The notes beneath the pieces are model-generated. The model was not told the DNA's origin, did no database searches, and saw only the letters and a list, made by a program, of their open reading frames with translations. Position numbers and translations under genes: made by a program. DNA of 64,000 nt from Cyclobacteriaceae bacterium (GTDB lineage: Bacteria > Bacteroidota > Bacteroidia > Cytophagales > Cyclobacteriaceae), in contig JAHBUE010000001.1 in the NCBI GenBank assembly GCA_019638235.1, positions 604,492-668,491 of the forward strand, given 5' to 3'. This document shows, one piece after another, positions 3,099 through 63,424 of the stretch (position 1 is its first letter; the number at the start of each line of letters is the position of its first letter).

Positions 3099-4217
3099 AT
3101 GAACAGGAAAATCGCCCCCTGGATGTTGATTGGATTTATTGCAATGGCTCTTACAGGCTTTGCCCAAAATCAACAGCTTGAAAGCGCCAGGAAGAAATTA
3201 GAGGCCAGCGACTTTGCAGGCGCAAAGGCCGAATTAACTAAGGCGTTGGATGCAAATCCTAAAGATAAAATGGCTTTGCGCTTGCGCGGAGAGGCACGCA
3301 TGGGGCTGGAAGATTTTTACGGAGCCATTTCCGACCTCACGTTTGCCCTTGAACTCGACTCAACATTTGCGGAAGCCTATTGGTACAGGGGTGAGGCGAA
3401 AGTTGCCTTAATGGATGACGAAAGCGCTATCCTCGATTTTGACAAAGCCATTAAGTTTAACCCGAAATATATCAACGCCTATACAAGCCGGGGTTTTGCA
3501 AAGTACAACATAGAAGATTTGGCCGGTGCATATTTTGATTTTTCAAAGGCATTGGAGTTAGGCCCGCCCGATGCCGATAAATTTTTTAACCGGGGTGTTG
3601 TAAAGGCCGAGTTGGGAGAATTTATCAGCGCGATTGATGATTATACCAAAGCCATTGAATTGGATAAAACCGATGCAAGCCTGTTTAACTATCGCGGTGT
3701 TGCGTATTACAACATTGGCGATTTCAACAAGGCCATTGCCGATTATGATGCGGCCGTTAAGTTAGAGCAGAACGACCCGTTGATTTTTGAAAACCGTGCA
3801 TTGGCTAAAAGTGCGAAAGAAGATTTTAAAGGTGCATTGGAAGATTACAACAAGGCTGTTGAGCTGAACCCCGAAGACCCCGAAACCTATAACCTGCGTG
3901 GGGTAATAAAATTTAATATGGAAGATCACGATGGCGCCATTAAGGATTACACGATAGCCATTGAGTTAGACCCAATCAACCCGGTATATTACGATAACCG
4001 TGCGTTGAGCCGCACGGAAAAGGAAGATTACCAGGGAGCGATTGAAGACTACACCTCTTCCATTGAACTCTATCCTTCCGACCCGGAAACATTTTATCAA
4101 CGTGGCTTAGTAAAGTTGCAGGTTGGCAACAAGTATGATGCCTGCCTTGACTTTAAAGCTGCCGATGAGCTTGGCTCACCAGAAGCGAAGGCGGCTATGA
4201 AGAAGAATTGCAAGTAA
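3099..4217 (+). CDS. tetratricopeptide (TPR) repeat protein, secreted
   Basis: 372 aa with a signal peptide, followed by about nine 34-residue repeats carrying A..Y..RG......D...A..D...A..L.P periodicity. Confidence 0.9.
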   Translation: MNRKIAPWMLIGFIAMALTGFAQNQQLESARKKLEASDFAGAKAELTKALDANPKDKMALRLRGEARMGLEDFYGAISDLTFALELDSTFAEAYWYRGEAKVALMDDESAILDFDKAIKFNPKYINAYTSRGFAKYNIEDLAGAYFDFSKALELGPPDADKFFNRGVVKAELGEFISAIDDYTKAIELDKTDASLFNYRGVAYYNIGDFNKAIADYDAAVKLEQNDPLIFENRALAKSAKEDFKGALEDYNKAVELNPEDPETYNLRGVIKFNMEDHDGAIKDYTIAIELDPINPVYYDNRALSRTEKEDYQGAIEDYTSSIELYPSDPETFYQRGLVKLQVGNKYDACLDFKAADELGSPEAKAAMKKNCK

Positions 4218-12607: not shown

Positions 12608-12681
12608 AACCACATAGACACATAGAACACATAGCTTTTTCAGAATTCTCTATGTTATGTGACCTATGTGTCTATGTGGTT
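12608..12681. repeat. AACCACATAG-type palindromic element, solo copy
   Basis: AACCACATAGACACATAG (12608-12625) is the exact reverse complement of 12664-12681. It lies 3' of the metalloprotease gene. Confidence 0.7.
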
Positions 12682-47822: not shown

Positions 47823-48587
47823 ATGAAAGCCAAAAAAACCAGTAAGCTGAAAAAGAACGACCCCGAATTAATTCAACGGGCAATAGAAGAAGAGCACCGC
47901 ATCCGCAAAGCCTTTAAAGATAAAGACTGGGCAGAGATAAAGGGCGCCAACAGTTGGATGATTTTTAAAGTGATGAGTGAGTTTGTAGAGGGCATGGAAA
48001 AGCTGGCAAAGATAGGCCCGTGTGTTTCCATTTTCGGCTCGGCCCGAACAAAAGCCAATCATGCCTATTATAAAACCGCAGAAGAAATTGCCTATCAATT
48101 AGTGCAGCACGGATACGGAGTTATTACCGGGGGCGGCCCTGGTATTATGGAAGCCGGCAACAAAGGTGCGCATCGTGCCGGGGGAAAATCCGTGGGGTTG
48201 AATATTTTTCTCCCGTTTGAGCAGAAAGGAAATATTTACATTGACCCGGATAAGCTCATCACATTCGATTACTTTTTTGTGCGCAAGGTGATGTTTGTAA
48301 AATATTCGCAAGGGTTTATTGTTATGCCTGGCGGATTTGGAACATTAGATGAAATAACAGAAGCGCTTACGCTGATTCAGACAAAAAAAATCGGAAGGTT
48401 CCCGATTGTTATGGTAGGAAAAAAATTCTGGCAAGGCTGGTTGGATTGGGTAAAAACGGTGCTGATTGATGACGGCATGATAAGCCCCGAAGACCTCGAC
48501 TTGTTTAGTGTGGTAGATACACCTGAAGAAGCGGTGAAAGTAATTGATGACTTCTATTCCAGGTATTTGTTGGCGCCAAACTTCTGA
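47823..48587 (+). CDS. LOG family (TIGR00730) nucleotide phosphoribohydrolase
   Basis: 254 aa with GGGPGIMEA and PGGFGTLDE motifs. Confidence 0.85.
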   Translation: MKAKKTSKLKKNDPELIQRAIEEEHRIRKAFKDKDWAEIKGANSWMIFKVMSEFVEGMEKLAKIGPCVSIFGSARTKANHAYYKTAEEIAYQLVQHGYGVITGGGPGIMEAGNKGAHRAGGKSVGLNIFLPFEQKGNIYIDPDKLITFDYFFVRKVMFVKYSQGFIVMPGGFGTLDEITEALTLIQTKKIGRFPIVMVGKKFWQGWLDWVKTVLIDDGMISPEDLDLFSVVDTPEEAVKVIDDFYSRYLLAPNF

Positions 48588-48973: not shown

Positions 48974-49939
48974 ATGCTTTCAAGAAATCTGTCTTTAGTT
49001 ATTTCAATAGTAGCCTTAGTTATCGTGCTGGGTTTTGTGCGGTATGCTAATAATCAACTTCAGCAAGTAGTAAGCGCACAAGCAAAAACAGAAGGCATCC
49101 GGGACGGAACACTTTCTTCAGCCGACTGGCAAGGTTCTGTTCCGCAATACTTTGCTGTTTCTTACGACCTGCCCGCTAACCTAACCTTTGCCGGTGAGCG
49201 TGTGCCCATTGAAATACCCGATGTGTTGGAACGCCTTGACCGCGAATTGCAGATTAACATTTACTTACACAGCAGCACCATATTTTTAATAAAGCGGGCT
49301 AATCGCTGGCTGCCACAGATGGAAGAAATTCTGCGCAAGCATAACATACCCGATGACTTTAAATACCTGCCGTTGATTGAATCAGGATTGTTGAATGATG
49401 TTTCTCCAAAAGAAGCGGTAGGATACTGGCAAATACTGAAAACGTCAGGACGGGAATTAGGGCTTGAGATAGATAAAGAAGTGGATGAGCGCTACGACCC
49501 GCTCAAAGCAACAGAAGCCGCCTGCAAATATTTAAACAATGCCTATAAAAAATTCGACAACTGGACGTTGGTAGCGGCTTCCTATAACAGAGGCATAGCC
49601 GGTGTTGGTCGCGCCCTCGAAAACCAACAAGTAGATAATTTTTACGACCTGCACTTAGTAGAAGAAACTTCGCGCTATGTGTTCCGCATTCTTGCCATAA
49701 AAGAAATTATTGAAAACCCGGCAACGTATAGTTTCAATGTAAATACTAAGCACCTATATCAACAGGAAAAACTACGGTATGTTGAAGTGAAAGAAACCAT
49801 TCCTGACCTTATACGTTTTGCCAAACAACAAGGTGTAAACTACAAACTGTTGAAACGTTACAACCCCTGGCTGCGCGATGACAAATTAACAGTTAAGCGC
49901 GGAAAGATTTACCAGATTGCATTGCCGGAAACGAACTAA
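48974..49939 (+). CDS. lytic transglycosylase (SLT domain) protein
   Basis: 321 aa with an N-terminal anchor. Contains the catalytic LIESGL and AVGYWQI motifs and AASYNRG. Confidence 0.8.
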   Translation: MLSRNLSLVISIVALVIVLGFVRYANNQLQQVVSAQAKTEGIRDGTLSSADWQGSVPQYFAVSYDLPANLTFAGERVPIEIPDVLERLDRELQINIYLHSSTIFLIKRANRWLPQMEEILRKHNIPDDFKYLPLIESGLLNDVSPKEAVGYWQILKTSGRELGLEIDKEVDERYDPLKATEAACKYLNNAYKKFDNWTLVAASYNRGIAGVGRALENQQVDNFYDLHLVEETSRYVFRILAIKEIIENPATYSFNVNTKHLYQQEKLRYVEVKETIPDLIRFAKQQGVNYKLLKRYNPWLRDDKLTVKRGKIYQIALPETN

Positions 49940-49949
49940 CTTTTCAAAT

Positions 49950-50711
49950 ATGCGCCCTTACATATTGGCCGAATCAAACTGGAAACAAATTAAAGACCTC
50001 GAAGTTGACGTAGCTATACTTCCCTGGGGAGCGTGCGAAGCGCACAACTATCATTTGCCTTACGCAACCGATATTATTGAGTCGGAACACATTTCAGCAG
50101 AGGCTGCACGGTTAGCCTGGGAACAAGGCGCGAAAGTAATGATGTTGCCGTGCGTTCCGTTTGGTGTAAACACGGGTCAGTTTGATGTAAAGCTGGATAT
50201 GAACATGAACCCGTCAACACAATTTCTTGTGTTAAAGGATTTGATTGAGGTACTCAACCGGCAGCGTATTTACAAGCTTATTATTTTAAACAGTCATGGC
50301 GGAAATGATTTCAAACCGATGATACGCGAACTGGGGCTTGTTTTCCCGGATATGTTTATCACTACGTGCAATTGGTTTCAGGCTATTGACCAAAAACAAT
50401 TTTTTGAAAACAAAGACGACCATGCCGGTGAAATGGAAACCAGCCTGATGTTGTATTTACGCCCCGACCTCGTGCTGCCGCTAACCGAGGCAGGCGATGG
50501 CGCGGCAAAGAAATTCAGGTTCACGGCCATCCATGAGGGCTGGGCCTGGGCCGAGCGCAAGTGGACACAAGTTACAGCGTCAACCGGTGTAGGCGACCCG
50601 CGCAAAGCCTCACGCGAAAAAGGTGAAAAATACTTTAAAGCGGTTACCGAAAAGGTGGCACGGTTTCTTACTGAAGTGGCAAAAACGAAAAGCGGGGAAC
50701 TTTATGAGTAA
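49950..50711 (+). CDS. creatininase family amidohydrolase
   Basis: ILPWGACEAHNYHLPY and NSHGGN motifs. The ATG at 49950 is preferred over 49917, which overlaps the upstream gene. Confidence 0.85.
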   Translation: MRPYILAESNWKQIKDLEVDVAILPWGACEAHNYHLPYATDIIESEHISAEAARLAWEQGAKVMMLPCVPFGVNTGQFDVKLDMNMNPSTQFLVLKDLIEVLNRQRIYKLIILNSHGGNDFKPMIRELGLVFPDMFITTCNWFQAIDQKQFFENKDDHAGEMETSLMLYLRPDLVLPLTEAGDGAAKKFRFTAIHEGWAWAERKWTQVTASTGVGDPRKASREKGEKYFKAVTEKVARFLTEVAKTKSGELYE

Positions 50712-50726
50712 GAAATGGGTATTGCT

Positions 50727-50896
50727 GTTAACGTTTTGTGTTTATTTAGTTGCGGGATTAGGAGGGTTTAAAAATGAAGCGCAGCGGAATGTTAAACCCG
50801 ACCTGCTGCAAAATTGTCCCCCGTGACCGAGCTGCATTTGAAACATACACTTAAATTTAACACTACACCCCGCAATTGCATAAACTTTTTGTTGCC
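50727..50896. repeat. about 170 bp palindromic element, copy A (attC-like or MITE-like)
   Basis: By eye about 85 percent identical to 54063-54231. Ends are GTTAAC...GTTGCC. Arms contain GTTTAT../..ATAAAC and TTGCGGG/CCCGCAA. Internal hairpin is GGGTTTAA (50764-50771) / TTAAACCC (50792-50799). It starts 16 nt after the creatininase-family gene stop and ends 11 nt before the stop of the 50908 gene. Confidence 0.8.
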
Positions 50897-50907
50897 GGCT
50901 GTGCCCG

Positions 50908-51216
50908 TTACCAATTTGTCGTGACGGAACTTACTTTCTTGTCCGTCCCGAAATTGATTTTGATTCTATTTAACTCAATTGAAGTCGAGTCCCCGAGGTC
51001 TGGATATCTGTCCGTAATTTCTTTAAAGTCCTCAAATGTCAGTTTACCCTTAATGATTTGAGAAACCTGTTCCAGGTCATGTTCGGTGTCTTCGTAGCCT
51101 TCTCTCATGTAAGTTATGGTCACACCTTGGTCAAGTATTGAGTACAACAGAAATAGTGTCGTCAAGATGAAAACTGTCAATAGTGTCCAAAACACTGTTC
51201 TCCATTTATTTTTCAT
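50908..51216 (-). CDS. hypothetical single-pass membrane protein
   Basis: The ORF is open to 51249. The Met at 51216 gives MKNKWRTVFWTLLTVFILTTLFLLY (TM segment) and avoids a 20 nt overlap with barstar. No recognised domain. Confidence 0.5.
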   Translation of the reverse strand: MKNKWRTVFWTLLTVFILTTLFLLYSILDQGVTITYMREGYEDTEHDLEQVSQIIKGKLTFEDFKEITDRYPDLGDSTSIELNRIKINFGTDKKVSSVTTNW

Positions 51217-51229
51217 TGGTCGTTTTACT

Positions 51230-51562
51230 TTAGTCAGCAGATATTGCAATCATTGCTTGTTCGTTGTTCTCAAGTTTTCTGTAATTGACAAAAGCTGAAC
51301 ACTCTAAAAGAGCTAAGTATATGTCGTTGCACCTTTCTTTGAAGCTTTCACTGTTACGAATTTCAATTACCAACGTGTCAGTTTTCTTAATCCAAACTTT
51401 AGTCATCCCGTTTTCAGGCGCGTCAATGTCGGTCATGCAGTCAATCCACGCATTCATATTTCGTCCGTAAAAGTCGGGGAACCCTAAAGTAATTTTGAAA
51501 ATGTCGTGGAATGAGTCCCAGTCGGTTATTAAGTCCGCGTTAATACTTATTCTTTTAATCAT
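51230..51562 (-). CDS. barstar family ribonuclease inhibitor
   Basis: 110 aa. I..DLITDWDSFHDIFKITLGFPDFYGRNMNAWIDCMT aligns with the barstar core (LH..L...L.LP.YYG.NLDALWDCLT). Confidence 0.8.
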   Translation of the reverse strand: MIKRISINADLITDWDSFHDIFKITLGFPDFYGRNMNAWIDCMTDIDAPENGMTKVWIKKTDTLVIEIRNSESFKERCNDIYLALLECSAFVNYRKLENNEQAMIAISAD

Positions 51563-51912
51563 TTAGCTCGTCAGTCGAATTTGTCCCCCGGCCATTACCG
51601 TCAACGTTCAGTATTTGTGCCGCCTGCGGTTTACGGAGCGCGGTACTTTCACCCGTGACGAAACAAAGTTAAGAAGACTAAACTACAAATTTACCGTGTC
51701 CCCGTGAAAGTGGCTGGGAAATTAAACAGGTTGTAAATATAGTTTGGTGATTTGAATTTTGCATTGTTGAACCGAAACGGAAGCAGGCTCTGCTGAGGAG
51801 CAACCTGCCAGGGATAGGTTCTCCCGACAGAATGTCGATAATCGAAAAGGATGTTGTTAACTCAATGTCCTTTTCTTTTGATATTCTGGAGGGCCAATGT
51901 CTAAAAAAACCT

Positions 51913-52030
51913 TTATGCCGTATATGCTGCCGGAGTTTGATAGCCAAGCGATTCATGCTCCCGAACAGTATTGTATTCTTGCAGCCATGCATCTGTTAGT
52001 GGCTGTGCTTTCCTTTTTGTCAATGCCGTT
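51913..52030 (-). pseudogene. C-terminal remnant of an rve (DDE integrase-core) transposase
   Basis: The minus-strand frame reads ...KRKAQPLTDAWLQEYNTVREHESLGYQTPAAYTA-stop. This matches the conserved W...YN..RPH.SLGY.TP C-terminus of IS3/IS481-type transposases. No upstream catalytic part is present. Confidence 0.5.
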
Positions 52031-52034
52031 TTTT

Positions 52035-53141
52035 TTAGTTGAGTGTAAAGTCCGCAAGTTCATAATTAGCATTTCGTCCGCCTTCTCCTGTTTCTTGCAA
52101 AATGCCTTTTTTTATTAGGTCCTTTATGTCACGCAATGCCGTGTCTGTTGAAACTTTGGTAATTTTTGCCCATTTTGATGATTGTAGTTTTCCGTCAAAT
52201 CCGTCAAACAACATATTCAGAATGATGCGTTGGCGTTCGTTGATCGTTGTGTTTTCGTACAGTTTCCAAAATTCGGCTTTGCGTAAAATGCGTTGCGTAG
52301 TGTTTTCGGTGGCAAGCATTGCGTTTTTCAGACAATGTAAAAACCATTCAAGCCATTCTGTAATGTTGCCTGTGCTGTGTTGCACTTTTTGCAATACTTC
52401 GTAGTAGCGTTTGCGTTCTACCAAAATTTGGCTTGACATACTGTAAAAACGTTCGCCACTACTTTCGGCACGGGCAAGCAACATATCGGTTATAGCCCGT
52501 CCAACACGTCCGTTTCCGTCATCAAATGGGTGAATAATAATAAACCAAAAGTGAGCAATAGCGGCTTTTATTACGGGGTCAAGTTGATTGTCATTATTGA
52601 ACCAATCCAAAAACTTGTCCATTTCGGCTTTTACCAACTTTGGCTTTACTGCTTCATAGTGTATTTTCTCTTTGCCCATTGCACCCGAAACTACCTGCAT
52701 TTCACCTGTTCGGTATTTACCAACTTCTATTTCATAAGGTCCGCTGTACCCTGTGGGAAAAAGTGCTGCGTGCCAACCAAACAACCGTTTTTCAGTTAAA
52801 GGTAAAGTGTAGCGTTGAGTCGCATCAAGCATCATTTCTACCACGCCTTCAATGTGGCGACTGCTTGGAACAAGTCCTGCGGTGTTAATCCCCAAACGCC
52901 TTGCAATGGAAGAACGCACTTGGTCGTAGTTGAGCAACTCGCCTTCAATTTCGCTTGATTTTACAACGTCTAAGGTAAGAGCCGTAAGCGTAGCTTCTTC
53001 TTTGGCAGAAAAGCCCAAAGCATTCATTTGTCCAATGATTTTGCCCTGCATTAGTTTTACTTCGCCAAATACAACATTTATGGCTTTGTCTTGCCACAAA
53101 AAGTTTGTCCAATTTTTATGCTCGTAAATGTATTTTGCCAT
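52035..53141 (-). CDS. Fic family protein (class II, N-terminal inhibitory motif, C-terminal winged-helix-like region)
   Basis: 368 aa with the Fic motif HPFDDGNGRVGR. An N-terminal SSEIEG fits the (S/T)xxxE(G/N) inhibitory helix. Confidence 0.9.
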   Translation of the reverse strand: MAKYIYEHKNWTNFLWQDKAINVVFGEVKLMQGKIIGQMNALGFSAKEEATLTALTLDVVKSSEIEGELLNYDQVRSSIARRLGINTAGLVPSSRHIEGVVEMMLDATQRYTLPLTEKRLFGWHAALFPTGYSGPYEIEVGKYRTGEMQVVSGAMGKEKIHYEAVKPKLVKAEMDKFLDWFNNDNQLDPVIKAAIAHFWFIIIHPFDDGNGRVGRAITDMLLARAESSGERFYSMSSQILVERKRYYEVLQKVQHSTGNITEWLEWFLHCLKNAMLATENTTQRILRKAEFWKLYENTTINERQRIILNMLFDGFDGKLQSSKWAKITKVSTDTALRDIKDLIKKGILQETGEGGRNANYELADFTLN

Positions 53142-53350
53142 TGCTCAAAATAGGATGCGGCAAATGTACGAATTATTTGCCGCAGATTTGCGGTGATAAT
53201 TTTATTTTTTCACCGCATAATTAGACCTAATGGCGAAAAATGGGCTGTTTTTGCTGTTTTTTTATTGTCAATATTTTTTCCATTCAAAACTTTTGAAACC
53301 ACTTTCTGTCGCCCGCCATTACGCCAAACCCGGTGTTGCCAGCCGTTGCA

Positions 53351-54046
53351 TTAGTCCACATATTTTAGTTTGTCTCCGCTAAATCTTGCTTCTACAACTT
53401 TGTTTCTAAGTCCTTTAGTTTCTTTTTTTATCCTTGTCCATACGTCTGATGGTACATTTTTGTCAAAATGCAAACTAATGATTGCTGTGCTGTCGGTGAT
53501 TATTTCATTCATTTTGTTTATGTCTGTCATTTTAATGAAAATATCATTGTCTAACTCTAATTGAACTGAGTCACTCCATTCATTTTTTCTCTTAGGCTGT
53601 CCGACTAAAATATTTTTAATATTAGTGTCTGAAATGTCATAACATGAACCATCACAGTCCATAAGTTCGATGTTTAAATTGCTTGTTGAATAGAGATTTT
53701 TTTTCTTATCCCTTAATTCAGCCTTATAAAATTCAATCGTTTCATTTCCTGCATCATGTTCAAAAAATAAAGTGACCTTGTCCTTAGTCGCCTTAAGGTC
53801 ATAAAACGGAAACATTCTCGGAGAACTTCTTATAAAAGAATTGTCTTTTAAGTCTATAATTATAGAGTCGTGTTGGTTAGTAAATATATTGTCGGTGTTT
53901 AGCAATACTAAGGTGTCTCTAATGTCTATTGTGTAAAACTGTCCGTTGTTTTCAGTTGAAACATAATAGCCTTCTATATTCTCGGTCTTGGTTTTACAAA
54001 ATGTTGTCAGACAGAAAAGGCCGAGTATTATGAAAATAGTCCTCAT
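53351..54046 (-). CDS. hypothetical lipoprotein, strongly AT-rich
   Basis: The Met at 54046 gives MRTIFIILGLFCLTTFC (lipobox). The ORF is open to 54067. A spot count on one 60 nt row gives about 30 percent G+C. No recognised domain. Confidence 0.55.
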   Translation of the reverse strand: MRTIFIILGLFCLTTFCKTKTENIEGYYVSTENNGQFYTIDIRDTLVLLNTDNIFTNQHDSIIIDLKDNSFIRSSPRMFPFYDLKATKDKVTLFFEHDAGNETIEFYKAELRDKKKNLYSTSNLNIELMDCDGSCYDISDTNIKNILVGQPKRKNEWSDSVQLELDNDIFIKMTDINKMNEIITDSTAIISLHFDKNVPSDVWTRIKKETKGLRNKVVEARFSGDKLKYVD

Positions 54047-54062
54047 TTTTTTTGCAATGGCT

Positions 54063-54231
54063 GGCAACGTTTGTGTTTATGCAGTGCGGGGAATTGGAGG
54101 GCTTAAAAATGAAGCGCAGCGGAATGTTAAGCCCGACCTGCTTCGAGCTGTCCCCCGTGACCGAACTACATTGTGAAACATAAACTTTAATTTAACACTA
54201 AACCCCCGCATTGCATAAACATTTTGTTGCC
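54063..54231. repeat. about 170 bp palindromic element, copy B (attC-like or MITE-like)
   Basis: GGCAAC (54063-54068) ... GTTGCC (54226-54231). The arms GTTTATGCAgTGCGGGG / CCCCGCAtTGCATAAAC pair with one mismatch. Internal hairpin is GGGCTTAA (54099-54106) / TTAAGCCC (54127-54134). Confidence 0.8.
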
Positions 54232-54265
54232 GGCTGGCATCAGTCCAACTTTAAATTTATTGTCC

Positions 54266-54904
54266 TTATTCTTTAGTCTTTGTTGTCAAGGGCTTGAGTG
54301 TCGTGTCACCAAGTTGTTCTGCGATAAACAGAATTAAACTATATTCTTCAACAGTCGTTGGTTCTACGTCTATTTCTTTCGAGTAAAATCCATGTGCAGT
54401 AAGTCCTGCCACTCCTTTAATTACTTTTGGCGTCTCGGGTCTAACTTTTAAAAGAGTCTGTTCTTCATTTATTTTCTCAAATGTCAAAATGAATGGTGTT
54501 CGGAACTCAAGTGCTTGTCCACCTGCATAATAAATTGGCGAATACCAATATTGTCCAAATGAGTGAATGTATATGTCGTTCTCGGTATTCGGTTTTTCAA
54601 AATGTTCTTTTCCAAACAACGCATTACCAGCAGTCTCTGCATTAAATGAAACAGTCATTTTATGTTCTCCGTTACCCATGTCAACATTAAAGTAAAATAT
54701 ACTTGATTGGTAAAATGGACTATTAATTTCTTTGTGCTCGTTAAAAGAGTTCAAAATTGTCTGCCTTAACTTGTCCAGAGGCACATAAAATATATGTTCA
54801 GTCGGATTGATCTCAACCAACTCCTTTGTCTCAAGTCTTTTAAGATTGTCACAACTTAAAAAAATTGCCGTAATGATTAATGTTATTAAAGTCCTTCGTG
54901 TCAC
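54266..54904 (-). CDS. hypothetical lipoprotein, AT-rich
   Basis: 212 aa with a GTG start and a lipobox (AIFLSCDN). No recognised domain. Confidence 0.55.
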   Translation of the reverse strand: MTRRTLITLIITAIFLSCDNLKRLETKELVEINPTEHIFYVPLDKLRQTILNSFNEHKEINSPFYQSSIFYFNVDMGNGEHKMTVSFNAETAGNALFGKEHFEKPNTENDIYIHSFGQYWYSPIYYAGGQALEFRTPFILTFEKINEEQTLLKVRPETPKVIKGVAGLTAHGFYSKEIDVEPTTVEEYSLILFIAEQLGDTTLKPLTTKTKE

Positions 54905-54947
54905 TTCACTGAATTTTGTTTATGGCTTGCCGGCAACTAGCGTATAT

Positions 54948-55007
54948 GTCTAACAAACCTACACAAATACGCCCTATTCTGCTGGCTTTGTGCAGGTTTT
55001 GTTGCAA
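54948..55007. repeat. 60 nt imperfect hairpin with AAC...GTT base, immediately 3' of the PLP-enzyme gene
   Basis: The plus strand reads GTCTAACAAACCTACACAAA-loop-TTTGTGCAGGTTTTGTTGC. The arms pair over about 17 positions with one bulged base and one mismatch. On the minus strand the distal end reads GTTAGAC. Confidence 0.5.
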
Positions 55008-55044
55008 ATCGTCAAACAGGCTTTTACTGTTTTGCAGGCTATCT

Positions 55045-56142
55045 CTACCCCATCATCGTAACAACCTCACCCTCCAACGTTGTATAACATTTCATCACAT
55101 CAGCCGTAAGGCAGGAGTGTATGGGCAGCACACCCAGCCAGTCCCCGGGTTTGATTTTCCCGGCTGTTTCTTTTTCGGCATGGACAATACCATGCTCCTG
55201 CGAAAGCGATTTTATATACATACCGGTTTCTTCCGTGCTCCATCCGTTACCGGTTAAACGTACTACTTTCCCAAAGGATGTAATGCTACCGGGCAACGAC
55301 AGTGAATCCTTTGAAAAATGAACACCACCGCCATGAACAACAATTTCATTTCGTTCAGGATAGGTTGCCACAACCGGGCAAACCATAGCCACCGCAATTT
55401 GATTGAGCGAACACGAGCCGATGTTGTGTTGGGTATAATCGTAAAATACAAAGTTGCCCGGCCTGATTTCATCAACTCTGGTGAAAGATTCGGCAATGCT
55501 ACACGTAGGCGTATCGCCAACGGAAACAATTAGGTGAGGGTATTGGGCTGAATAGGTTTGTTTGAGTTGCTTCGCAATGGTTGTACTGTGTTGCTGAATA
55601 TTGAGAATAGCGTTTTTGTCGTTGCGGATTTTATAACTATGACCATCGTGTATTAAAAATCCGTTGAACGTTATATGCGGGTAAATTTCAACCCGGTTTA
55701 AAATGGTGTTAATCATCGCTGTATTTTCCGGTGAAATACCGGTACGGTGATACCCCGTATCAATTTCAATAAACAGGTTGACCGGGTTAAGAATTTCTTT
55801 TCCGAGTTGGTCAACCGTTTCGGGTGAAACAACCAACAGGTTCAACCTTATTTTTTCAGTCAGCCGGTTAAGGCGGGTTTTTTCATGCACGTTTACAGGG
55901 AACGCGACCGTAATATCATCCCAGCCGTCTTCAGCAAAATATTCTGCCATCTTTATGGAAGATACCGCAATTTTCTCAACACCAACTGCACGAAACCACC
56001 TGCCCACTTCATGCGACTGGTGCGTTTTAAAATGCGGACGAAAGGATACATTATTCCGTTGTGCCTTATCGGCCATAGCCTGAATGTTGGCCAGGCATTT
56101 TTGTTTGTCCAAAAGAAGTGTTGGTTCAGTGAGGTTCAGCAT
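55045..56142 (-). CDS. D-TA family PLP-dependent enzyme (alanine racemase N-terminal fold; D-threonine aldolase/D-serine dehydratase-like)
   Basis: 365 aa with FRPHFKTHQS (PLP lysine region). Normal composition. Confidence 0.75.
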   Translation of the reverse strand: MLNLTEPTLLLDKQKCLANIQAMADKAQRNNVSFRPHFKTHQSHEVGRWFRAVGVEKIAVSSIKMAEYFAEDGWDDITVAFPVNVHEKTRLNRLTEKIRLNLLVVSPETVDQLGKEILNPVNLFIEIDTGYHRTGISPENTAMINTILNRVEIYPHITFNGFLIHDGHSYKIRNDKNAILNIQQHSTTIAKQLKQTYSAQYPHLIVSVGDTPTCSIAESFTRVDEIRPGNFVFYDYTQHNIGSCSLNQIAVAMVCPVVATYPERNEIVVHGGGVHFSKDSLSLPGSITSFGKVVRLTGNGWSTEETGMYIKSLSQEHGIVHAEKETAGKIKPGDWLGVLPIHSCLTADVMKCYTTLEGEVVTMMG

Positions 56143-56202
56143 GGAGTGATGTTTTTTAGGATGAATCTCTTATATACTTATGCCGTAAGTTACTCACATC
56201 AA

Positions 56203-56655
56203 TCATTGTATTATCTGATGACTACAATTTTTGATTATTTGAGTTTTCAATTTTATCCATGGAAACTTAAACTTATATATATCGCTAAATACAGTCGCCC
56301 ATTGTCCGTTATTCTCAGATTGTAATAGAGCCTTATAAGTTGTTCCGTTTCGTGTGAATTTTAAGATTCTGTATTCTCCTGTTATCAGGCCTTGTACTGC
56401 TTTAATACACTCCTCAGCTATTTGTGAATTAACAGGAAACCACTCACACCAGATGTCTGGAGTTGCAATATGAAATTCATCTTCGTTTTGAAGATTTAGA
56501 TAAATATCAAAATCTAAACCTGGTTGTTTAAGAATGTCCATACTTACATCGACATGCTCTGGATTTCTATTAATTGTCATGGTGAGATTGGGAAAGAGGC
56601 TTTGAATTTTTTCAAAAACTTGTATTGCCAACTCTATGGTTTTTTGCGTGTCCAT
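56203..56655 (-). CDS. hypothetical cytoplasmic protein, AT-rich
   Basis: 150 aa with no signal peptide and no recognised domain. It is wedged between ggt and the PLP enzyme gene with very short spacers. Confidence 0.5.
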   Translation of the reverse strand: MDTQKTIELAIQVFEKIQSLFPNLTMTINRNPEHVDVSMDILKQPGLDFDIYLNLQNEDEFHIATPDIWCEWFPVNSQIAEECIKAVQGLITGEYRILKFTRNGTTYKALLQSENNGQWATVFSDIYKFKFPWIKLKTQIIKNCSHQIIQ

Positions 56656-56677
56656 TTAATAATTTTAATAAAAAACC

Positions 56678-58531
56678 CTACCACCCAATTCCATAATCCT
56701 CTCCATGATTGCTCGAACCTCCCCAGAAACTTCCGTTTTTCCAGTCGAAGTAAATGGCGTTTACCGGGCCGCTGGTGCGTTCGCGATAGGTTATCCGGTA
56801 GCCCATTTGCCCTAACTCCTTGCGCGACCAGGGCGGCATTTGATTATTCAGTATCAATGAGCCGGGTTGCTTTTCATGATTACCAAAGCTGGAATACATT
56901 TGGTTGGTAATGAAACCTGGCGCTTCGCACGCCTCCTGAACGGTCATGTTAAACTCCACCATGTTCAAAAAGAATTGCGTAAGTAATTGGTCTTGCTCAT
57001 CACCGGCTTGCTTGGCAAATGAAAGAAAAGGTTTACCGTCTTTAAGTGCAAGGCTGGGCGTAAGCGTAACACGCGGACGCTTGTCGGGTTCAACTACGTT
57101 AAATGGATTTTCTTTTTCGTCTAACACAAAACTCTGCATACGCTGACTCATGCCAATGCCGGTGTTGCCCGCAATGCAGGCAGGCACCCAACCACCACTG
57201 GGCGTAACGGAAACCACCCAGCCCTCTTTGTCGGCTGTTTCAATTGAGGTTGTGCCGGCAGCAAAGTCTTCAAAATATTTTTCGTCCATCGGAGTGTATA
57301 GGTTGCTTTGTTGATTGCCCCAGTCTTTCAGTAAATTGCTATACGGATTTATTTTCCCTTCATACGGATATGGGTCGCCCGGCCCGGCTTTGGGGTTGTT
57401 GCGTTCAGGGTTAATCAGCTTTGCGCGTTCTTTTGCATACTCTTTCGAGAGCAAACCTTTCATCGGCTCTTCCGGTGCAAAGGCCGGATCGCCATAATAA
57501 AAATCACGGTCTGCGAAAGCAAGATTCATGGCCTGGTACAGTGTGTGTATGTATTTCGATGAATTATAGCCCATCGATTTTAAATCAAAATTTTCAAGAA
57601 TGTTCAATGTTTGTAACATCACCGGGCCTTGTGTCCACTGCTGAAGTTTGTACACATCAATGCCTTTGTAAGTGGTCATCAACGGTTCTTCAATTTTTAC
57701 TTTCCAGTTGGCAAGGTCTTGTTCTGTAATTAAACCGCCTTGCTCCTGACAACCGCGTGCAAATTCTTTGGCAATATCGCCTTTGTAAAACCGGTCGTAA
57801 GCGGCATAGATAGCATCCTTGCGCGACTTACCTTTTTTAAGTGCCTGCTGTTCGGCATCCACCATTTTCTTTAACGTTTCCAACAAGTCTTTCTGAACAA
57901 AAATTTCTCCTGCATAAGGCGCCTCACGATTTTCGCCCGGATGTGTAAGAAAAACTTTTTTGGAATAAGGCCATTCTTTGATTTGCGATTTTCCGCGCTC
58001 AATCGAGTTTGCAGTTTGCGCTTCAATCGGGTAGCCTTCGGCCATTTGCATGGCGGGCGTCAGCACATCTTTTAAACTCATGGTTCCGTATTCGGCCAGC
58101 ATGGTTAGCAAGCCGCCCGGTGTGCCCGGAGTAACGGCTGCCAGTGGCCCGTACTGGGGCGGGTACTTCATGCCTTTGTCTTTAAAAAATTGTGCAGTTG
58201 CTCCGGTAGGCGCAACACCTAAGGCATTAATGGCAATTACTTTTTTTGTTTTTGGATTATAGATGAGCGCCTGCGTTTCGCCTCCCCAGCTTAATACATC
58301 CCACATGGTGCAGTTTGCAGCCAAGATAGCGCAGGCGGCATCTACTGCGTTGCCACCTTTGCTGAAAATCATAGCCCCTGCTGTTGCTGCCAACGGTTTG
58401 CCGGTAACGGCCATCCAATGTCGGCCATGCAACGGGGGCTTTTGTGTAGTAACCGGAAAGGTGTTGAACGATTGCGCAAAGGCTGTTGTGATGAACAGCG
58501 TGGCAAAAAGAAAGAGCGCGAACTTCTTCAT
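56678..58531 (-). CDS. ggt: gamma-glutamyltransferase family protein
   Basis: 617 aa with a signal peptide and a GTTSIETADKEGWVVSVTPSGG autoprocessing/nucleophile region. Confidence 0.85.
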   Translation of the reverse strand: MKKFALFLFATLFITTAFAQSFNTFPVTTQKPPLHGRHWMAVTGKPLAATAGAMIFSKGGNAVDAACAILAANCTMWDVLSWGGETQALIYNPKTKKVIAINALGVAPTGATAQFFKDKGMKYPPQYGPLAAVTPGTPGGLLTMLAEYGTMSLKDVLTPAMQMAEGYPIEAQTANSIERGKSQIKEWPYSKKVFLTHPGENREAPYAGEIFVQKDLLETLKKMVDAEQQALKKGKSRKDAIYAAYDRFYKGDIAKEFARGCQEQGGLITEQDLANWKVKIEEPLMTTYKGIDVYKLQQWTQGPVMLQTLNILENFDLKSMGYNSSKYIHTLYQAMNLAFADRDFYYGDPAFAPEEPMKGLLSKEYAKERAKLINPERNNPKAGPGDPYPYEGKINPYSNLLKDWGNQQSNLYTPMDEKYFEDFAAGTTSIETADKEGWVVSVTPSGGWVPACIAGNTGIGMSQRMQSFVLDEKENPFNVVEPDKRPRVTLTPSLALKDGKPFLSFAKQAGDEQDQLLTQFFLNMVEFNMTVQEACEAPGFITNQMYSSFGNHEKQPGSLILNNQMPPWSRKELGQMGYRITYRERTSGPVNAIYFDWKNGSFWGGSSNHGEDYGIGW

Positions 58532-58673
58532 AGGTACACGGGTTTACGGATAGGCATTTACATTTGTAATGCGTCTTGCTTCATAAAGTTAAAGGTAAGG
58601 TAATTTGATGACAGTAACTTGTGATGAAACGCAAATTGCGCAGGTTATGCGGGGGCAGATGAATTTGAATTGC

Positions 58674-58681
58674 TACATTTG
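58674..58681 (+). promoter_or_regulatory. candidate -7 box TACATTTG for the purine nucleoside phosphorylase pair
   Basis: Matches TAnnTTTG and ends 17 nt upstream of the ATG at 58699. Confidence 0.35.
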
Positions 58682-58698
58682 ATTGTAATTTTTAACGT

Positions 58699-59514
58699 AT
58701 GCTTAACCAGATTAAAGAAGCGGCTGACTTTATCCAAAAGCGGATTAGCGTTAAGCCCAAAATCGGGATTATACTGGGCACGGGCTTAGGCGACCGGATG
58801 ATAGAAGAAATTGATGAGGCGGTAGTTATCAACTATAACGCTATTCCTTATTTTCCTATCACAACGGTAGCAACACATAAAGGGCAGTTGATTATCGGGA
58901 AGGTGAAAGGGAAACCGGTAATAGCTATGCGCGGTCGCTTGCATTATTATGAAGGCTACACCATGCACCAGATTGCGCTGCCCATTCGTGTTATGAGTAT
59001 GCTGGGCGTTCAATACCTGCTGGTTTCAAATGCGGCAGGCAACATGAATCTCGAGTGGAAAAAAGGTGAGCTTATGTTGTTGGAAGACCACATCAACCTT
59101 CAGCCCGATAACCCGTTGCGTGGCGAAAACTTTGAATTTTTCGGCCCACGCTTCCCCGATATGAGCGAACCCTATTCAACAGACCTGAATAAAAAGTTAT
59201 TGCGCATTGCGAAAAAGGAAAAGATAAAACTCAACACGGGTGTTTACGCTGCTGTATCCGGCCCCAGCCTGGAAACCCGTGCGGAATATAAGTATTTGCG
59301 AACCATTGGGGCAGATGTGGCCGGCATGAGCACCGTGCCCGAAGTTCTGGTTGCCCGCCACATGGATATGACGTGTTGTGCGGTTTCAGTGCTTACCAAT
59401 GATTGTGACCCAAATAATTTACATAGGGTTGAATTGCAACAGATAATCGATACGGCATCCGCATCAGAAAAAAATTTAGTAAAACTTTTTACCGGACTGA
59501 TTGAGCAACTGTAA
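58699..59514 (+). CDS. purine nucleoside phosphorylase (trimeric PunA/PNP type), copy 1
   Basis: 271 aa with ILGTGLG, RLHYYEGY, NAAG, GPSLETRAE and GMSTVPEV. Confidence 0.9.
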   Translation: MLNQIKEAADFIQKRISVKPKIGIILGTGLGDRMIEEIDEAVVINYNAIPYFPITTVATHKGQLIIGKVKGKPVIAMRGRLHYYEGYTMHQIALPIRVMSMLGVQYLLVSNAAGNMNLEWKKGELMLLEDHINLQPDNPLRGENFEFFGPRFPDMSEPYSTDLNKKLLRIAKKEKIKLNTGVYAAVSGPSLETRAEYKYLRTIGADVAGMSTVPEVLVARHMDMTCCAVSVLTNDCDPNNLHRVELQQIIDTASASEKNLVKLFTGLIEQL

Positions 59515-59526
59515 TTTGAAAGAGGA

Positions 59527-60345
59527 ATGATAAGAGAAATAAAAGAAGCTACCGATTTTTTATATAAGCGCGGAATTGAAGCGCCAGAAGTGGGCGTGAT
59601 TTTAGGAACCGGGCTTGGAAATTTATTTGTGAAAGAAATAAAGAAACCTGTTGTTGTTAACTATAACTCTATCCCACACTTTCCAATATCAACGGTAGAA
59701 TACCACAAAGGCCAGTTGATTTATGGCGAAGTAAAAGGAAAGAAAGTATTGGCCATGCAAGGTCGCTTTCATTATTATGAAGGATACAGCCTTCAACAGG
59801 TAACGTTGCCCGTACGTGTTATGAAATTGCTGGGCGTTCAGCACTTGCTTATTTCTAATGCAGCCGGAAACCTGAATGTAAAGAACTGGAAAAAGGGAGA
59901 GTTGATGCTGATAGACGACCACATCAATTTACTTCCTGATAATCCGTTGCGTGGCGAAAACTATGAAATATTCGGCCCACGATTTCCGGATATGAGCGAG
60001 CCGTATGCGTCATCGCTAAATAAAAAACTAAAGCAAATCGCGAAAGCAAAAAAAATAAAACTAAACGAAGGTGTTTACACTGCCGTAATGGGCCCTAACT
60101 TAGAAACACGAGCCGAGTATAGATTTCTGAAACGCATTGGAAGCGATGCCGTAGGCATGAGCACCGTGCCCGAAGTAATCGTAGCCAACCACATGAGCTT
60201 GCCGTGTTGCGCTATTTCTGTTTTAACCGATAATTGCGACCCGGATAACCTGAAACCGGTGGACCTGAAAGAAATTGTTAAAGTTGCCGGCAAGGCCGAA
60301 CCAAAGCTCACCGAACTGTATGTTGAGTTGATTAAATCGTTGTAG
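59527..60345 (+). CDS. purine nucleoside phosphorylase (trimeric PunA/PNP type), copy 2
   Basis: 272 aa with the same motif set as copy 1. Colinear with it, roughly two thirds identical by eye. Confidence 0.9.
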   Translation: MIREIKEATDFLYKRGIEAPEVGVILGTGLGNLFVKEIKKPVVVNYNSIPHFPISTVEYHKGQLIYGEVKGKKVLAMQGRFHYYEGYSLQQVTLPVRVMKLLGVQHLLISNAAGNLNVKNWKKGELMLIDDHINLLPDNPLRGENYEIFGPRFPDMSEPYASSLNKKLKQIAKAKKIKLNEGVYTAVMGPNLETRAEYRFLKRIGSDAVGMSTVPEVIVANHMSLPCCAISVLTDNCDPDNLKPVDLKEIVKVAGKAEPKLTELYVELIKSL

Positions 60346-60372
60346 TGTTTAATTCATTGTTAAAGGAATCTT

Positions 60373-63243
60373 TTACTTTTCAGAAAGTTTCTCCCTCAAA
60401 AACATTGCGGTATAGCTGCCTTTGGCTTTCTTCGCCATCTCTTCGGGCGTGCCGGCAAATAAAAGTTTGCCGCCTTTCTTTTCTCCACCTTCGGGGCCAA
60501 GGTCAATAACCCAGTCAGCACATTTTATTACTTCCATGTTGTGTTCAATTACCACAACACTATTGCCCTGGTCAACAAGTGCGTTGATTGCTTTCAACAA
60601 TTTAAATATATCGTGAAAGTGAAGCCCGGTTGTAGGCTCATCAAAAATAAACAGCGTGTGCCCGTCTGAAGAATTTTTTCCGAGAAAGGAAGCAAGCTTT
60701 ACCCGTTGCGCTTCTCCCCCGCTTAATGTATTGGACGATTGACCGAGTTTTACATACCCCATGCCTACATCAAATAACGGTTTAATTTTTTCGTAGATAG
60801 ATTTCCTATCCTTAAAAAATTCAAGCCCGTACTCTACTGTCATGTCCAACACATCGGCAATGTTCTTACCGTTGTACTCTACTTCAAGTATTTCCTGTTT
60901 GAAGCGTTTGCCGTGGCACGATTCGCATTTCAGGAAAATATCGGCCATGAATTGCATCTCCACTTTTATTTCGCCTTCACCTTCGCAGGTTTCGCACCGA
61001 CCACCCTCTACGTTAAATGAAAAATGCGAGGGCTTGTACCCGCGTTGTTTGGCTAATGGCTGGTCGGCATATAATTGCCGTATGGCATCATAAGCTTTTA
61101 CATAAGAGATAGGATTGGAGCGCGATGATTTTCCAATCGGGTTTTGGTCAACAAATTCAACTTGTGTGAGTTGCGAAACATCGCCCTCAAGTTTATCAAA
61201 CTTACCAGGCAATTCAGCCACAGCGCCATGCATCCGCCCAATGGCAGGGTACAAAATTTTTTTAATTAATGTTGATTTTCCGCTTCCGCTGATGCCGGTA
61301 ACTACCGTTAGCACACCCATCGGAAACTTTACCGTTAAATTTTTCAGGTTGTTTTCGCGCGCGCCAACAACAGTAATGGCGTCCTTCCACTTTCTACGTT
61401 TTTTCGGAACCTCAATTTTATCTTTACCGGTAAGGTAATTAGTAGTGTGCGAAGCAAATTTTCCCTGCCCGTTGCTCAGGCGAGCGTTCAGGTCTTTTAG
61501 CGCGCCCTGATATACAAGTTGGCCACCATGCGCACCGGCCTCGGGGCCAATGTCAATTAGCTGGTCGGCAGCACGCATAATTTCTTCTTCGTGCTCAACT
61601 ACAATTACCGTGTTACCCAAATCACGCAACGATTTCAACACCTCAATCATGCGTGCTGTATCTTTCGGGTGCAGCCCGATACTCGGTTCGTCCATAATAT
61701 ACATGGAGCCTACCAGCGCACTGCCCAACGAGGTAGCGAGTTTTATACGTTGGTATTCGCCCCCCGAAAGTGTAGCCGTAAGCCGGTTAAGAGTTAAATA
61801 ACCTAACCCCACTTTAACAAGATATTCCAATCTTGTTTTGATTTCAGTAAGTATGCGATTTGATACTTTCAAATCATATTCGGGTATTTTCAGTTTATCG
61901 AAAAATTCCAGTGCATCTTCAAGGGGCATCAAGGCCAGGTCGATAATGGAAGTGTTTGCGATTTTTACATAATGCGCATCTTTTCGTAGCCGTGTTCCTT
62001 TGCAATCGGGGCAGTTGGTTCTTCCACGGTATCGCGAAAGCAAAACGCGGTATTGTATTTTGTGTGTTTTCGATTCAAGGTATTTGAAGAAAGTATGAAT
62101 ACCGTCAATGTGTTCGTTACCGTTCCAGAGCAAATCTTTTTCCTGTTGCGATAATTCATGATAGGGGCGATGAATCGGAAAATCGAACTTAACACCATTC
62201 TTTAACAAAGGCTTCAGCCATTCGCCCATTACCTCACTGCGCCAGGGCGCCACAGCGTCTTCATAAACCGAAAGCGATTTATCGGGAATAACAAGGTCTT
62301 CATCAATACCCAATATTTTTCCGAAACCTTCACACGTACGACACGCGCCATACGGGTTATTGAAGCTGAAAAAATTAACAGAGGGCTCGGTGAATTTCAT
62401 TCCGTCTAATTCAAACCGGTCGGAGAAGCGCATCGGCCTGTGATTTTCTGCATAGATGATGCACTCGTCATGCCCTTCGTAAAAGGCAGTTTGCACCGAA
62501 TCGGACAACCGGAAAATGGTATCCTCATCATTTGCATTTACGGAAGCCCGGTCAATCAGAATATCAAGTCCCTCACCCCCTGCCCCTCTTCCAGTGGGAG
62601 AGGGGAGTTTTTTCTTTTCGGCCAACAGTTCTTCAATAAACCTTGGTTCGCCATCGATAAGTACACGGGCAAATCCTTTACTTAATAACAGGTTTAACTC
62701 ATCGTGGAGCTTTCTCCCTTTTTTCAGCGCAAGCGGGCAAGCTACCAGTATGCGTGTACCTTCCGGCAGCTTGTTAATTTCATTTACAACATCAGTTACA
62801 CTATCGCGCTTCACTTCTTTACCACTTATGGGCGAATAGGTTTTTCCGATACGCGCAAACAGGAGTTTGAGATAATCGTAAACTTCGGTAGTAGTGCCTA
62901 CGGTTGAACGCGGGTTGCGTGTGTTTACTTTTTGTTCGATGGCGATGGCTGGCGAAACACCCCGGATATAATCCACTTCGGGTTTCTCCATGCGGCCAAG
63001 AAATTGGCGTGCATAGGAGCTAAGACTTTCCACATACATGCGTTGCCCTTCGGCAAAAAGCGTATCGAATGCCAACGATGATTTTCCGGAGCCCGATAAG
63101 CCCGTAACAACCACAAGTTTGTTTCGGGGAATAGCCACACTAAGGTTTTTCAGGTTGTTAACCCGTGCCCGCTTTATGATTATGTATTCCCTCGGGTCGA
63201 GGTTGTCGAGTTCGGAGTCGTTCACAGGCAGTTTCACATTCAA
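60373..63243 (-). CDS. uvrA: excinuclease ABC subunit UvrA
   Basis: 956 aa with two ABC modules ([18 protein letters not shown]), zinc-finger cysteines ([22 protein letters not shown]) and LSGGE signatures. Confidence 0.97.
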
Positions 63244-63290
63244 TGTGGAAAATTAGTAATTAATGATAAGTAGTGGATAAAAAATAAAAA

Positions 63291-63424
63291 AGAGGCTGTA
63301 TCAAAAGTCGAAAAATTAAGAGTGAGTGTCATTCCGGCCTTGAGCCGGAATATCGTTCAGCAACTTTGAATCGGGGATCGCGGAGTAAATCCGCGATGAC
63401 AGAACGACTTTTGATACAGCCTCT
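63291..63424 (-). terminator. composite hairpin: 20 bp perfect outer stem enclosing two inner hairpins, followed by a T-run on the minus strand
   Basis: AGAGGCTGTATCAAAAGTCG (63291-63310) is the exact reverse complement of 63405-63424. Inner stems are ATTCCGGC/GCCGGAAT and ATCGCGGA/TCCGCGAT. The minus strand continues TTTTTATTTT. It lies between the stop of 63448..63825 and the uvrA start. Confidence 0.6.

Follow-up and report, generated by a model that had tools for sequence, protein, structure and literature searches.

The stretch of DNA analysed here (hereafter the window) comprises 64,000 nucleotides (nt) of contig JAHBUE010000001.1 in the Cyclobacteriaceae bacterium assembly GCA_019638235.1. 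In this window, a creatininase gene on the plus strand (49917-50711) and a D-TA-like PLP gene on the minus strand (55045-56142) are convergent and flank a block of small genes, which is the subject of this report together with the attC-like sites found in it. We consider it very likely that this block, 50712-55044, is an orphan cassette array, decayed in part, that belongs to a gene-capture system of the integron type common in Cytophagales. The original prediction, made from the letters alone, had proposed an integrase-less array of this type with all open reading frames (ORFs) on the minus strand, barstar and Fic genes among them, and a drop in G+C content. The strand claim holds for the ORFs between 50711 and 55045 that reach at least 100 amino acids (aa) and have either a family match or a signal peptide, all of which lie on the minus strand. 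Pfam confirmed the barstar gene (51230-51562) and the Fic gene (Fic plus DUF4172; 52035-53141) as well as the creatininase and the PLP gene (Ala_racemase_N plus D-ser_dehydrat), and gave no family match for two putative lipoproteins. The G+C content indeed falls to 0.31-0.38 at 53200-54800, where the lipoprotein genes lie, against 0.42-0.50 in the flanks.

Sites were called with two covariance models, namely R1, built from 44 copies of the element, and R2, the model of the short class of sites; both are specific to this family, and the site calls rest on them. In three relatives, the D-TA proteins of which are 75-77% identical, the block was absent and the flanking genes are 3-14 nt apart, the D-TA gene being convergent with the creatininase gene or with the next gene, SLT. 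No R1 site was found at the creatininase/D-TA junction of the relatives. Thus, we regard all of 50712-55044 as an insertion, and an identical content of the locus across relatives, which would have spoken against an array, was not observed. The array may have reached the locus by secondary-site insertion, by transfer of a multi-cassette block, or as the remainder of a former platform that was lost. The features of the block are listed below in the reading direction of the minus strand.

50712-55044, minus strand: the whole inserted block, very likely an orphan cassette array, between the convergent creatininase and D-TA-like genes; absent in relatives; G+C drop
54945-55014, minus strand: W1, a short hairpin with the attC layout TTTGCAAC-AAAA-stem...stem-TTT-GTTAGAC, not an intact site (R1 8.3 bits, E 0.46; fold z -2.1)
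54929-54937, minus strand: G|TTGCCGGC, with which cassette 1 starts; it is complementary to GCCGGC, the AAC flank of copy B, in keeping with the flank rule
54266-54904, minus strand: ORF of cassette 1, a putative lipoprotein of 212 aa without a family
54056-54239, minus strand: attC-like copy B, the end of cassette 1, with AAC at 54228-54226 and GTT at 54068-54066 (R1 220 bits, E 1e-50; hairpin fold)
53351-54046 (or to 54067), minus strand: ORF of cassette 2, a putative lipoprotein of ~231 aa from ATG, without a family
53335-53350, minus strand: 5' half-site of cassette 2, TGCAACGGCTGGCAAC, directly 3' of the ORF stop codon, its 3' half missing or decayed
52035-53141, minus strand: Fic/DUF4172 gene (Pfam), without matching bounding sites
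51913-52017, minus strand: remnant of an insertion sequence (IS) transposase, the C-terminal end of rve_3 (PF13683, E 1e-8, profile positions 39-67 of 67)
51593-51739, minus strand: degenerate attC-like site, the GTT of which (51605-51603) begins the barstar cassette (R1 21.2 bits, E 0.011 over all loci, 4e-4 locally)
51230-51562, minus strand: barstar-family immunity gene, the first gene of the last cassette (PF01337, E 2.5e-15)
50908-51249, minus strand: small membrane protein, the second gene of the last cassette (weak sub-threshold Pfam matches)
50720-50904, minus strand: attC-like copy A, the last site, with AAC at 50893-50891 and GTT at 50733-50731 (R1 185 bits, E 3e-42; three broken stem pairs)

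Copies A and B share 85% identity over ~175 nt; copy B forms a long hairpin (fold z -2.3), the stem of copy A is degraded, and copy A lies 19 nt from the creatininase stop codon. The sites had been described as sharing GGCAAC/GTTGCC. AAC and GTT are conserved, but the 'GGC/GCC' part turned out to be a cassette-specific flank that is similar in three cassettes of the window. Likewise, the predicted distances from ORF stop codons to GGCAAC or GCAAC were correct at 11, 10 and 34 nt, while that behind the PLP gene is ~39 nt instead of 37. The hexamer GTTGCC showed no enrichment, with 50 copies in the window against 41 expected. GTTGCCGGC was enriched (7 found, 0.75 expected), and three of its copies fall within the block; those at 48153 and 60283 lie inside genes and were treated as chance occurrences. 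The window contains just two exact copies of the 10-mer GGCTGGCAAC, which form an inverted pair bracketing exactly one ORF, that of cassette 2.

Read along the minus strand, cassette 1 begins with G|TTGCCGGC at 54937 and ends with copy B, and cassette 2 begins in the GTT flank of copy B with GTTGCCAGCCATTGCA (54068-54053). The site behind the gene stopping at 53351 had been described as lacking a convincing distal partner. Its 3' half is missing, but a partner does exist in the start of its own cassette: TGCAACGGCTGGCAAC (53350-53335) is complementary to 54068-54053 at 15 of 16 nt, and the sole mismatch falls on the position that is obligatorily mismatched throughout the family. Cassette 2 is followed by the Fic gene, the last ~30 codons of rve_3 (directly after the Fic stop codon, inside the array) and the degenerate site at 51593-51739, for which no matching cassette start was found; neither was one found upstream of W1. 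The IS remnant and the truncated or degenerate sites in the middle of the array suggest that an IS-mediated rearrangement probably broke this part. The window copy therefore holds two clean cassettes (the lipoproteins), a looser one (barstar plus membrane protein), decayed sites and an IS remnant, the last of which, together with the Fic gene, occupies places where sites were truncated. R2 had no significant match in the window, and homologues of the window cassette proteins were not found in other arrays among ~130 fetched loci.

Site structure and the flank rule

With an invariant 20-mer of the element, we collected 45 loci, mostly of Cytophagales (Cyclobacteriaceae, Ohtaekwangia, Chryseosolibacter, Chryseotalea and Algoriphagus) plus one of Lacibacter. 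The Lacibacter locus (L013, ~3500-3560) is the only match from Chitinophagales and abuts the 3' end of a tRNA gene. Many of the 20-mer matches lie at contig ends. An independent assembly of the same strain as the window (L046; Logan SRR12908353), which is 100% identical to window 54102-63332, ends inside copy B, indicating that the repeat breaks short-read assemblies.

R1 detected 132 sites in the 45 loci, at most 11 per 8 kb and on one strand per locus. The sites range from 93 to 185 nt and fall into length classes of ~184, ~144 and ~100 nt, and the array units (n = 82) have a median length of 797 nt, the longest ORF being co-oriented with the site in 76 of 81. The element copies are conserved from AAC to GTT, and the 7-14 nt outside these triplets vary from copy to copy. 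AAC...GTT was found in 110 of the 124 full-length sites and in both strong sites of the window.

In integrons, crossover takes place at G|TT, and the bases after GTT belong to the next cassette and pair with the AAC flank of that cassette. We compared 7 flank nt in each of 85 consecutive site pairs. The GTT flank was complementary to the AAC flank of the next downstream site at 6.0 of 7 positions, with 72 of the 85 pairs scoring at least 6, against 2.86 of 7 for the AAC flank of the same site and 2.89 of 7 for a random control. Resolved by position after GTT, complementarity was 0.91-0.98 at positions 1-6, 0.52 at position 7, 0.01 at position 8 and 0.95-0.74 at positions 9-14, beyond which it was random. 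Position 8 is an obligatory A.C mismatch on the coding strand, that is, a G.T pair on the other strand. There was no signal of target-site duplications in direct repeat, as 2.1 of 7 flank positions match. Cassettes 1 and 2 of the window obey the rule. This flank rule is the decisive result of the analysis, being the signature of integron cassettes cut at G|TT; the sites behave as attC in this respect, which supports the integrase-less integron-type array of the original prediction.

The hairpin is under selection. Compensatory changes were observed at 13 pairs in the long class. In the short class, 94.5% of the cells were paired, against 68.7% in shuffles and at most 46% in slid controls, and 156 cells were changed on both sides, against 47 in shuffles, with none of 500 shuffles reaching the observed value. 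G-U intermediates were almost absent from the short class, which fits pairing in DNA rather than RNA. The site consists of an R box, a 4-nt spacer against one of 4-5 nt (AAAA/AAAG against CAAAC/TAAAC), an L stem in which an A.C position is fixed, and a loop that varies. No bulged extrahelical bases were identified; instead, fixed A.C mismatches of the coding strand (G.T on the bottom strand) occur in the L stem and the R helix. In 86 of 130 sites, folding slightly favours the bottom strand (mean -1.1 kcal/mol, p 2e-6). We infer that the folded bottom strand is the substrate and that the system makes a choice of strand. No relevant Rfam family was found for the block and related arrays, either at the gathering threshold or by E-value; attC itself is not represented by a family in Rfam.

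Two further observations concern individual sites. In seven loci (L011, L017, L026, L031, L038, L074 and L003), a conserved non-coding module of ~230 nt lies just upstream of a long-class site. This module occurs in many species, after unrelated ORFs and without an Rfam match, and may be part of an ORF-less cassette or a regulatory RNA. In L041, the site at 1666-1848 is chimeric, with the 5' arm of one sequence subtype and the 3' arm of the other, which suggests that two sites recombined at a point other than the canonical crossover.

The recombinase and attI

Just upstream of the array, three of the 45 loci encode a tyrosine recombinase (367-389 aa) that is co-oriented with the cassettes. With this recombinase as a metagenome query, 80 loci were obtained. 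R1 detected 62 sites in them, all downstream and on the recombinase strand (120 kb), and none in 320 kb upstream; where 3 kb or more of downstream sequence was available, 11 of 12 loci had a site. Half of the recombinase contigs stop no more than 300 nt from the gene, which is what breakage of assemblies at repeats would produce. On the complete chromosome L132, 13 small co-oriented genes and 10 sites come after the recombinase gene.

The best matches of the recombinase were integron integrases (TIGR02249, 221 bits; VchIntIA, 2a3v, E 8e-40), each match falling in two stretches, and XerA scored about equal to IntI. For the first ~70 residues, an alpha/beta domain is predicted with confidence; it matches no Pfam family. 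In public records, these proteins are named only 'XerD' or 'tyrosine-type recombinase'. In the integron-like subgroup of a published tyrosine recombinase classification, the IntI insertion is described as 'not fully conserved' (PMC8138268). The recombinase next to the arrays is presumably the catalyst. Relatives of the recombinase with 40-50% identity were seen in L105, L110, L117, L122 and others within L097-L126; many are apparently marine, and R1 matches there were weak or none. It is probable that the system also occurs outside Cytophagales, with families of sites that escape R1.

The first cassette begins at a GTT that is preceded by a conserved hairpin (15 loci) and lies 27-77 nt beyond the point where the recombinase match ends. 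This attI hairpin reads AATAAGGGTATATAGG...CCTATATAC-nnnC|GTT, and the final codons of the recombinase gene, stop included, lie in its left arm. Five loci from one study (L078, L082, L083, L084 and L085), with 94-99.9% identity upstream, have attI in common; exactly behind its GTT, they part into five different first cassettes. L085 shows cassette-like starts, yet has no R1 match in 10 kb, suggesting that more divergent classes of sites exist.

A remnant of an integrase and attI was also considered at the window junction 54937, which looked attI-like (AATAGGGCGTAT...ATATACGCTA|GTT) and where the peptide 'KSLFDDL' is similar to the C-terminus of the recombinase. The candidate was dropped as unsupported, because the window was matched neither by an nhmmer profile covering attI and the 3' end of the recombinase gene nor by the recombinase profile in hmmsearch --max.

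Interpretation and rival explanations

In the interpretation proposed here, a cassette is made up of promoterless genes, one or two in number and co-oriented, and behind them a recombination site of 93-185 nt, the latter comprising a variable R-box flank with AAC, an unpaired spacer of 4 nt, a long imperfect stem, a variable loop, a spacer of 4-5 nt and GTT. Cassettes would be cut and joined at or beside GTT, so that the flank after each GTT would belong to the next cassette, and circularization of a cassette would restore an R helix of 14-17 bp with one fixed A.C mismatch. In a complete element, an Xer/IntI-like tyrosine recombinase without the IntI insertion but with an extra N-terminal alpha/beta domain is encoded directly upstream in the same direction, and cassettes would enter at the attI hairpin overlapping its stop codon. 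The genes of the window array would be read through from the D-TA gene.

Several observations weigh against reading the block as an integron-type array. The window has only two strong sites. W1 had no significant R1 score and no R2 match, the half-site at 53335 was matched by neither model, and the ends of the barstar/membrane-protein cassette agree at 4 of 7 positions in the core flank and at 8 of 11 over the extended box. Furthermore, as the original prediction had stated for the integrase, no recombinase or remnant of it was found in the 64-kb window by tblastn or by hmmsearch --max with the recombinase profile (best E 1.3, elsewhere). Activity in the window thus cannot be claimed, and the array is presumably inactive now or served in trans. 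As for the recombinase itself, the TIGR02249 scores (221 and 198 bits) are below the curated cut-off of 265, and 25 aa stand in place of the 68-aa stretch of VchIntIA that holds the IntI-specific domain. According to work cited in PMC9668308, this additional domain is reported as necessary for IntI activity. Since the recombinase family lacks it, we regard the system as integron-like rather than a proven classical integron; judged from sequence, it is integron-like in every respect that could be tested other than this one defining feature.

An explanation that needs no cassette logic is that the 175-nt repeats are selfish palindromes of the repetitive extragenic palindrome (REP) or miniature inverted-repeat transposable element (MITE) type, which by chance lie 3' of acquired genes. 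The terminal inverted repeats, the high identity between copies and the intergenic position would agree with such elements, as would the breaking of assemblies at the repeats. However, the sites are co-oriented within each locus and regularly spaced behind co-oriented ORFs, their flanks pair with the neighbouring site and not with their own, target duplications are lacking (2.1 of 7 flank positions), and the polarity relative to the recombinase gene is strict. The original prediction had itself named REP/MITE elements as the alternative, with scattered copies in both orientations as the pattern to look for. The element was found always in co-oriented arrays behind co-oriented ORFs, which rules out scattered REP/MITE copies, and we reject this alternative as hardly credible. 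The hairpins could also act as RNA, namely as terminators, stabilizers or small RNAs, with the arrays being gene islands grown by other means. A structure conserved with covariation and located 3' of ORFs would fit this explanation, and the non-coding module adjoining some sites would suit it, but no Rfam family matched, the near absence of G-U intermediates argues for pairing in DNA, and the exchange of flanks and attI are left unexplained. The probability of this explanation is very slight.

The remaining alternative accepts the sites as ordinary attC and assigns them to a canonical IntI encoded elsewhere in the genome, the Xer-like neighbour being a bystander or a dimer-resolution enzyme. 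It draws on the match of site architecture and crossover rule to classical integrons and on the absence from the adjacent enzyme of the domain reported as essential for IntI. On the other hand, 62 sites lie downstream of the recombinase gene against 0 upstream, and attI overlaps the stop codon of this gene, exactly where the cassettes diverge in near-identical strains. In addition, tblastn with IntI1 hit only this recombinase family in the 45 loci and the window. We regard a canonical IntI acting from elsewhere as unlikely. The cassette array of an integron-type system with its own recombinase family thus stays our preferred interpretation.

Beyond this, it seems to us about an even chance that the window array belongs to a class of integron so far undescribed, which would be widespread in Cytophagales and probably in other Bacteroidota. 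Its IntI/Xer-like recombinase would work without the IntI additional domain, perhaps by means of the extra N-terminal domain, the fixed G.T/A.C positions in the long R helix and the L stem may serve to pick the strand, and attI would lie in the 3' end of the recombinase gene. We found no description of these arrays in the searchable full-text literature, although absence there is no proof of their being undescribed. Integrons are the textbook case of gene capture, thought to need the unique integrase domain and reported as nearly absent in Bacteroidetes; what is new here is that many environmental Bacteroidota, a large group, have arrays that follow the cassette logic in full beside a recombinase lacking that domain. 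If the reading as an undescribed class is correct, integron-type capture of single-stranded cassettes evolved, or persisted, outside the canonical IntI family, and tools that require the IntI domain or an attC model trained on Proteobacteria would miss the system; current integron finders may file such cassettes as nothing or as orphan clusters. The question raised is how folded-DNA sites are recognized and the strand is chosen without the extra domain of IntI, the fixed mismatches being one candidate. The arrays also reveal a large cassette pool that includes immunity, Fic, restriction-modification and mercury-transport genes, and explain why assemblies break at these loci.

Known systems and neighbouring features

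The system shares several features with classical integrons (class 1 and the sedentary chromosomal integrons of Vibrio with attC of the Vibrio cholerae repeat [VCR] type). The cassettes are co-oriented and mostly of unknown function or of toxin or immunity type, the sites have the attC layout (R box with AAC...GTT, unpaired spacer, L stem and variable loop), crossover falls at G|TT with the 3' flank in the next cassette, and attI lies beside the integrase gene; the homogeneity of sites within arrays recalls VCR sites. In contrast to classical integrons, the IntI-specific insertion is missing from the recombinase, which has a further domain of ~70 aa at its N-terminus, is co-oriented with the cassettes and is overlapped by attI at its 3' end. 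The R helix is 14-17 bp long with an obligatory A.C mismatch instead of 7 bp, and the sites reach 185 nt, with a strongly conserved internal hairpin and no classical extrahelical bases identified. Altogether, the system appears to be an integron variant in which the IntI-like recombinase has no signature domain, is co-oriented with the cassettes and is overlapped at its 3' end by attI, the R helix being long and certain mismatches fixed.

In 'inverted' integrons, for example those of Treponema, intI is co-oriented with the cassettes. The arrays described here resemble these and archaeal integrons in having the integrase gene upstream and co-oriented, with attI immediately downstream. In archaeal integrons, attI is located downstream of intI and the integrases keep the IntI additional domain (PMC9668308). 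The integrases of both groups retain this domain, whereas the recombinase family here is without it.

Modules bounded by dif sites offer another comparison. Those on Acinetobacter plasmids have duplex XerC/D sites of ~28 bp in alternating orientation. The likeness to Xer/dif modules lies in XerA scoring about as IntI against the recombinase and in discrete modules bounded by recombinase sites. The sites here, unlike dif, are hairpins of 93-185 nt in one orientation that exchange flanks in the manner of attC, and they did not qualify as dif sites.

Clusters of attC lacking an integron integrase are termed CALINs (PMC9024848). The window block resembles them in having several attC-type sites with cassettes, no integrase nearby and signs of decay. 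Two strong R1 matches and a weak one lie within 4.3 kb, which agrees with at least two clustered attC and no integrase, although the CALIN definition uses the attC model of IntegronFinder and the sites of the window were called with family-specific models. Thus, the block is an ordinary, decaying member of its system, comparable to a CALIN. In the IntegronFinder 2.0 survey, Bacteroidetes had only In0 elements plus one complete integron, in Salinibacter (PMC9024848).

Outside the block, a 150-aa ORF without a family (ORF150; 56203-56655, minus strand; 34% G+C) lies between ggt and the D-TA gene. Its position is a second variable slot, which holds a PIN toxin pair in the relative L128 and is empty in L127 and L131, and no attC-type site was associated with it. 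The D-TA gene and ORF150 were both considered as cassettes and rejected, as neither has a site or a matching start upstream and the D-TA gene is syntenic in relatives. Elsewhere in the window, an inverted repeat unrelated to the array was found at 12608-12681, with 26-nt arms that are 92% complementary and carry repeats of the ACATAG type. Two tandem paralogous PNP_UDP_1 genes with ~74% DNA identity lie at 58805-60186, and this arrangement is kept in relatives.

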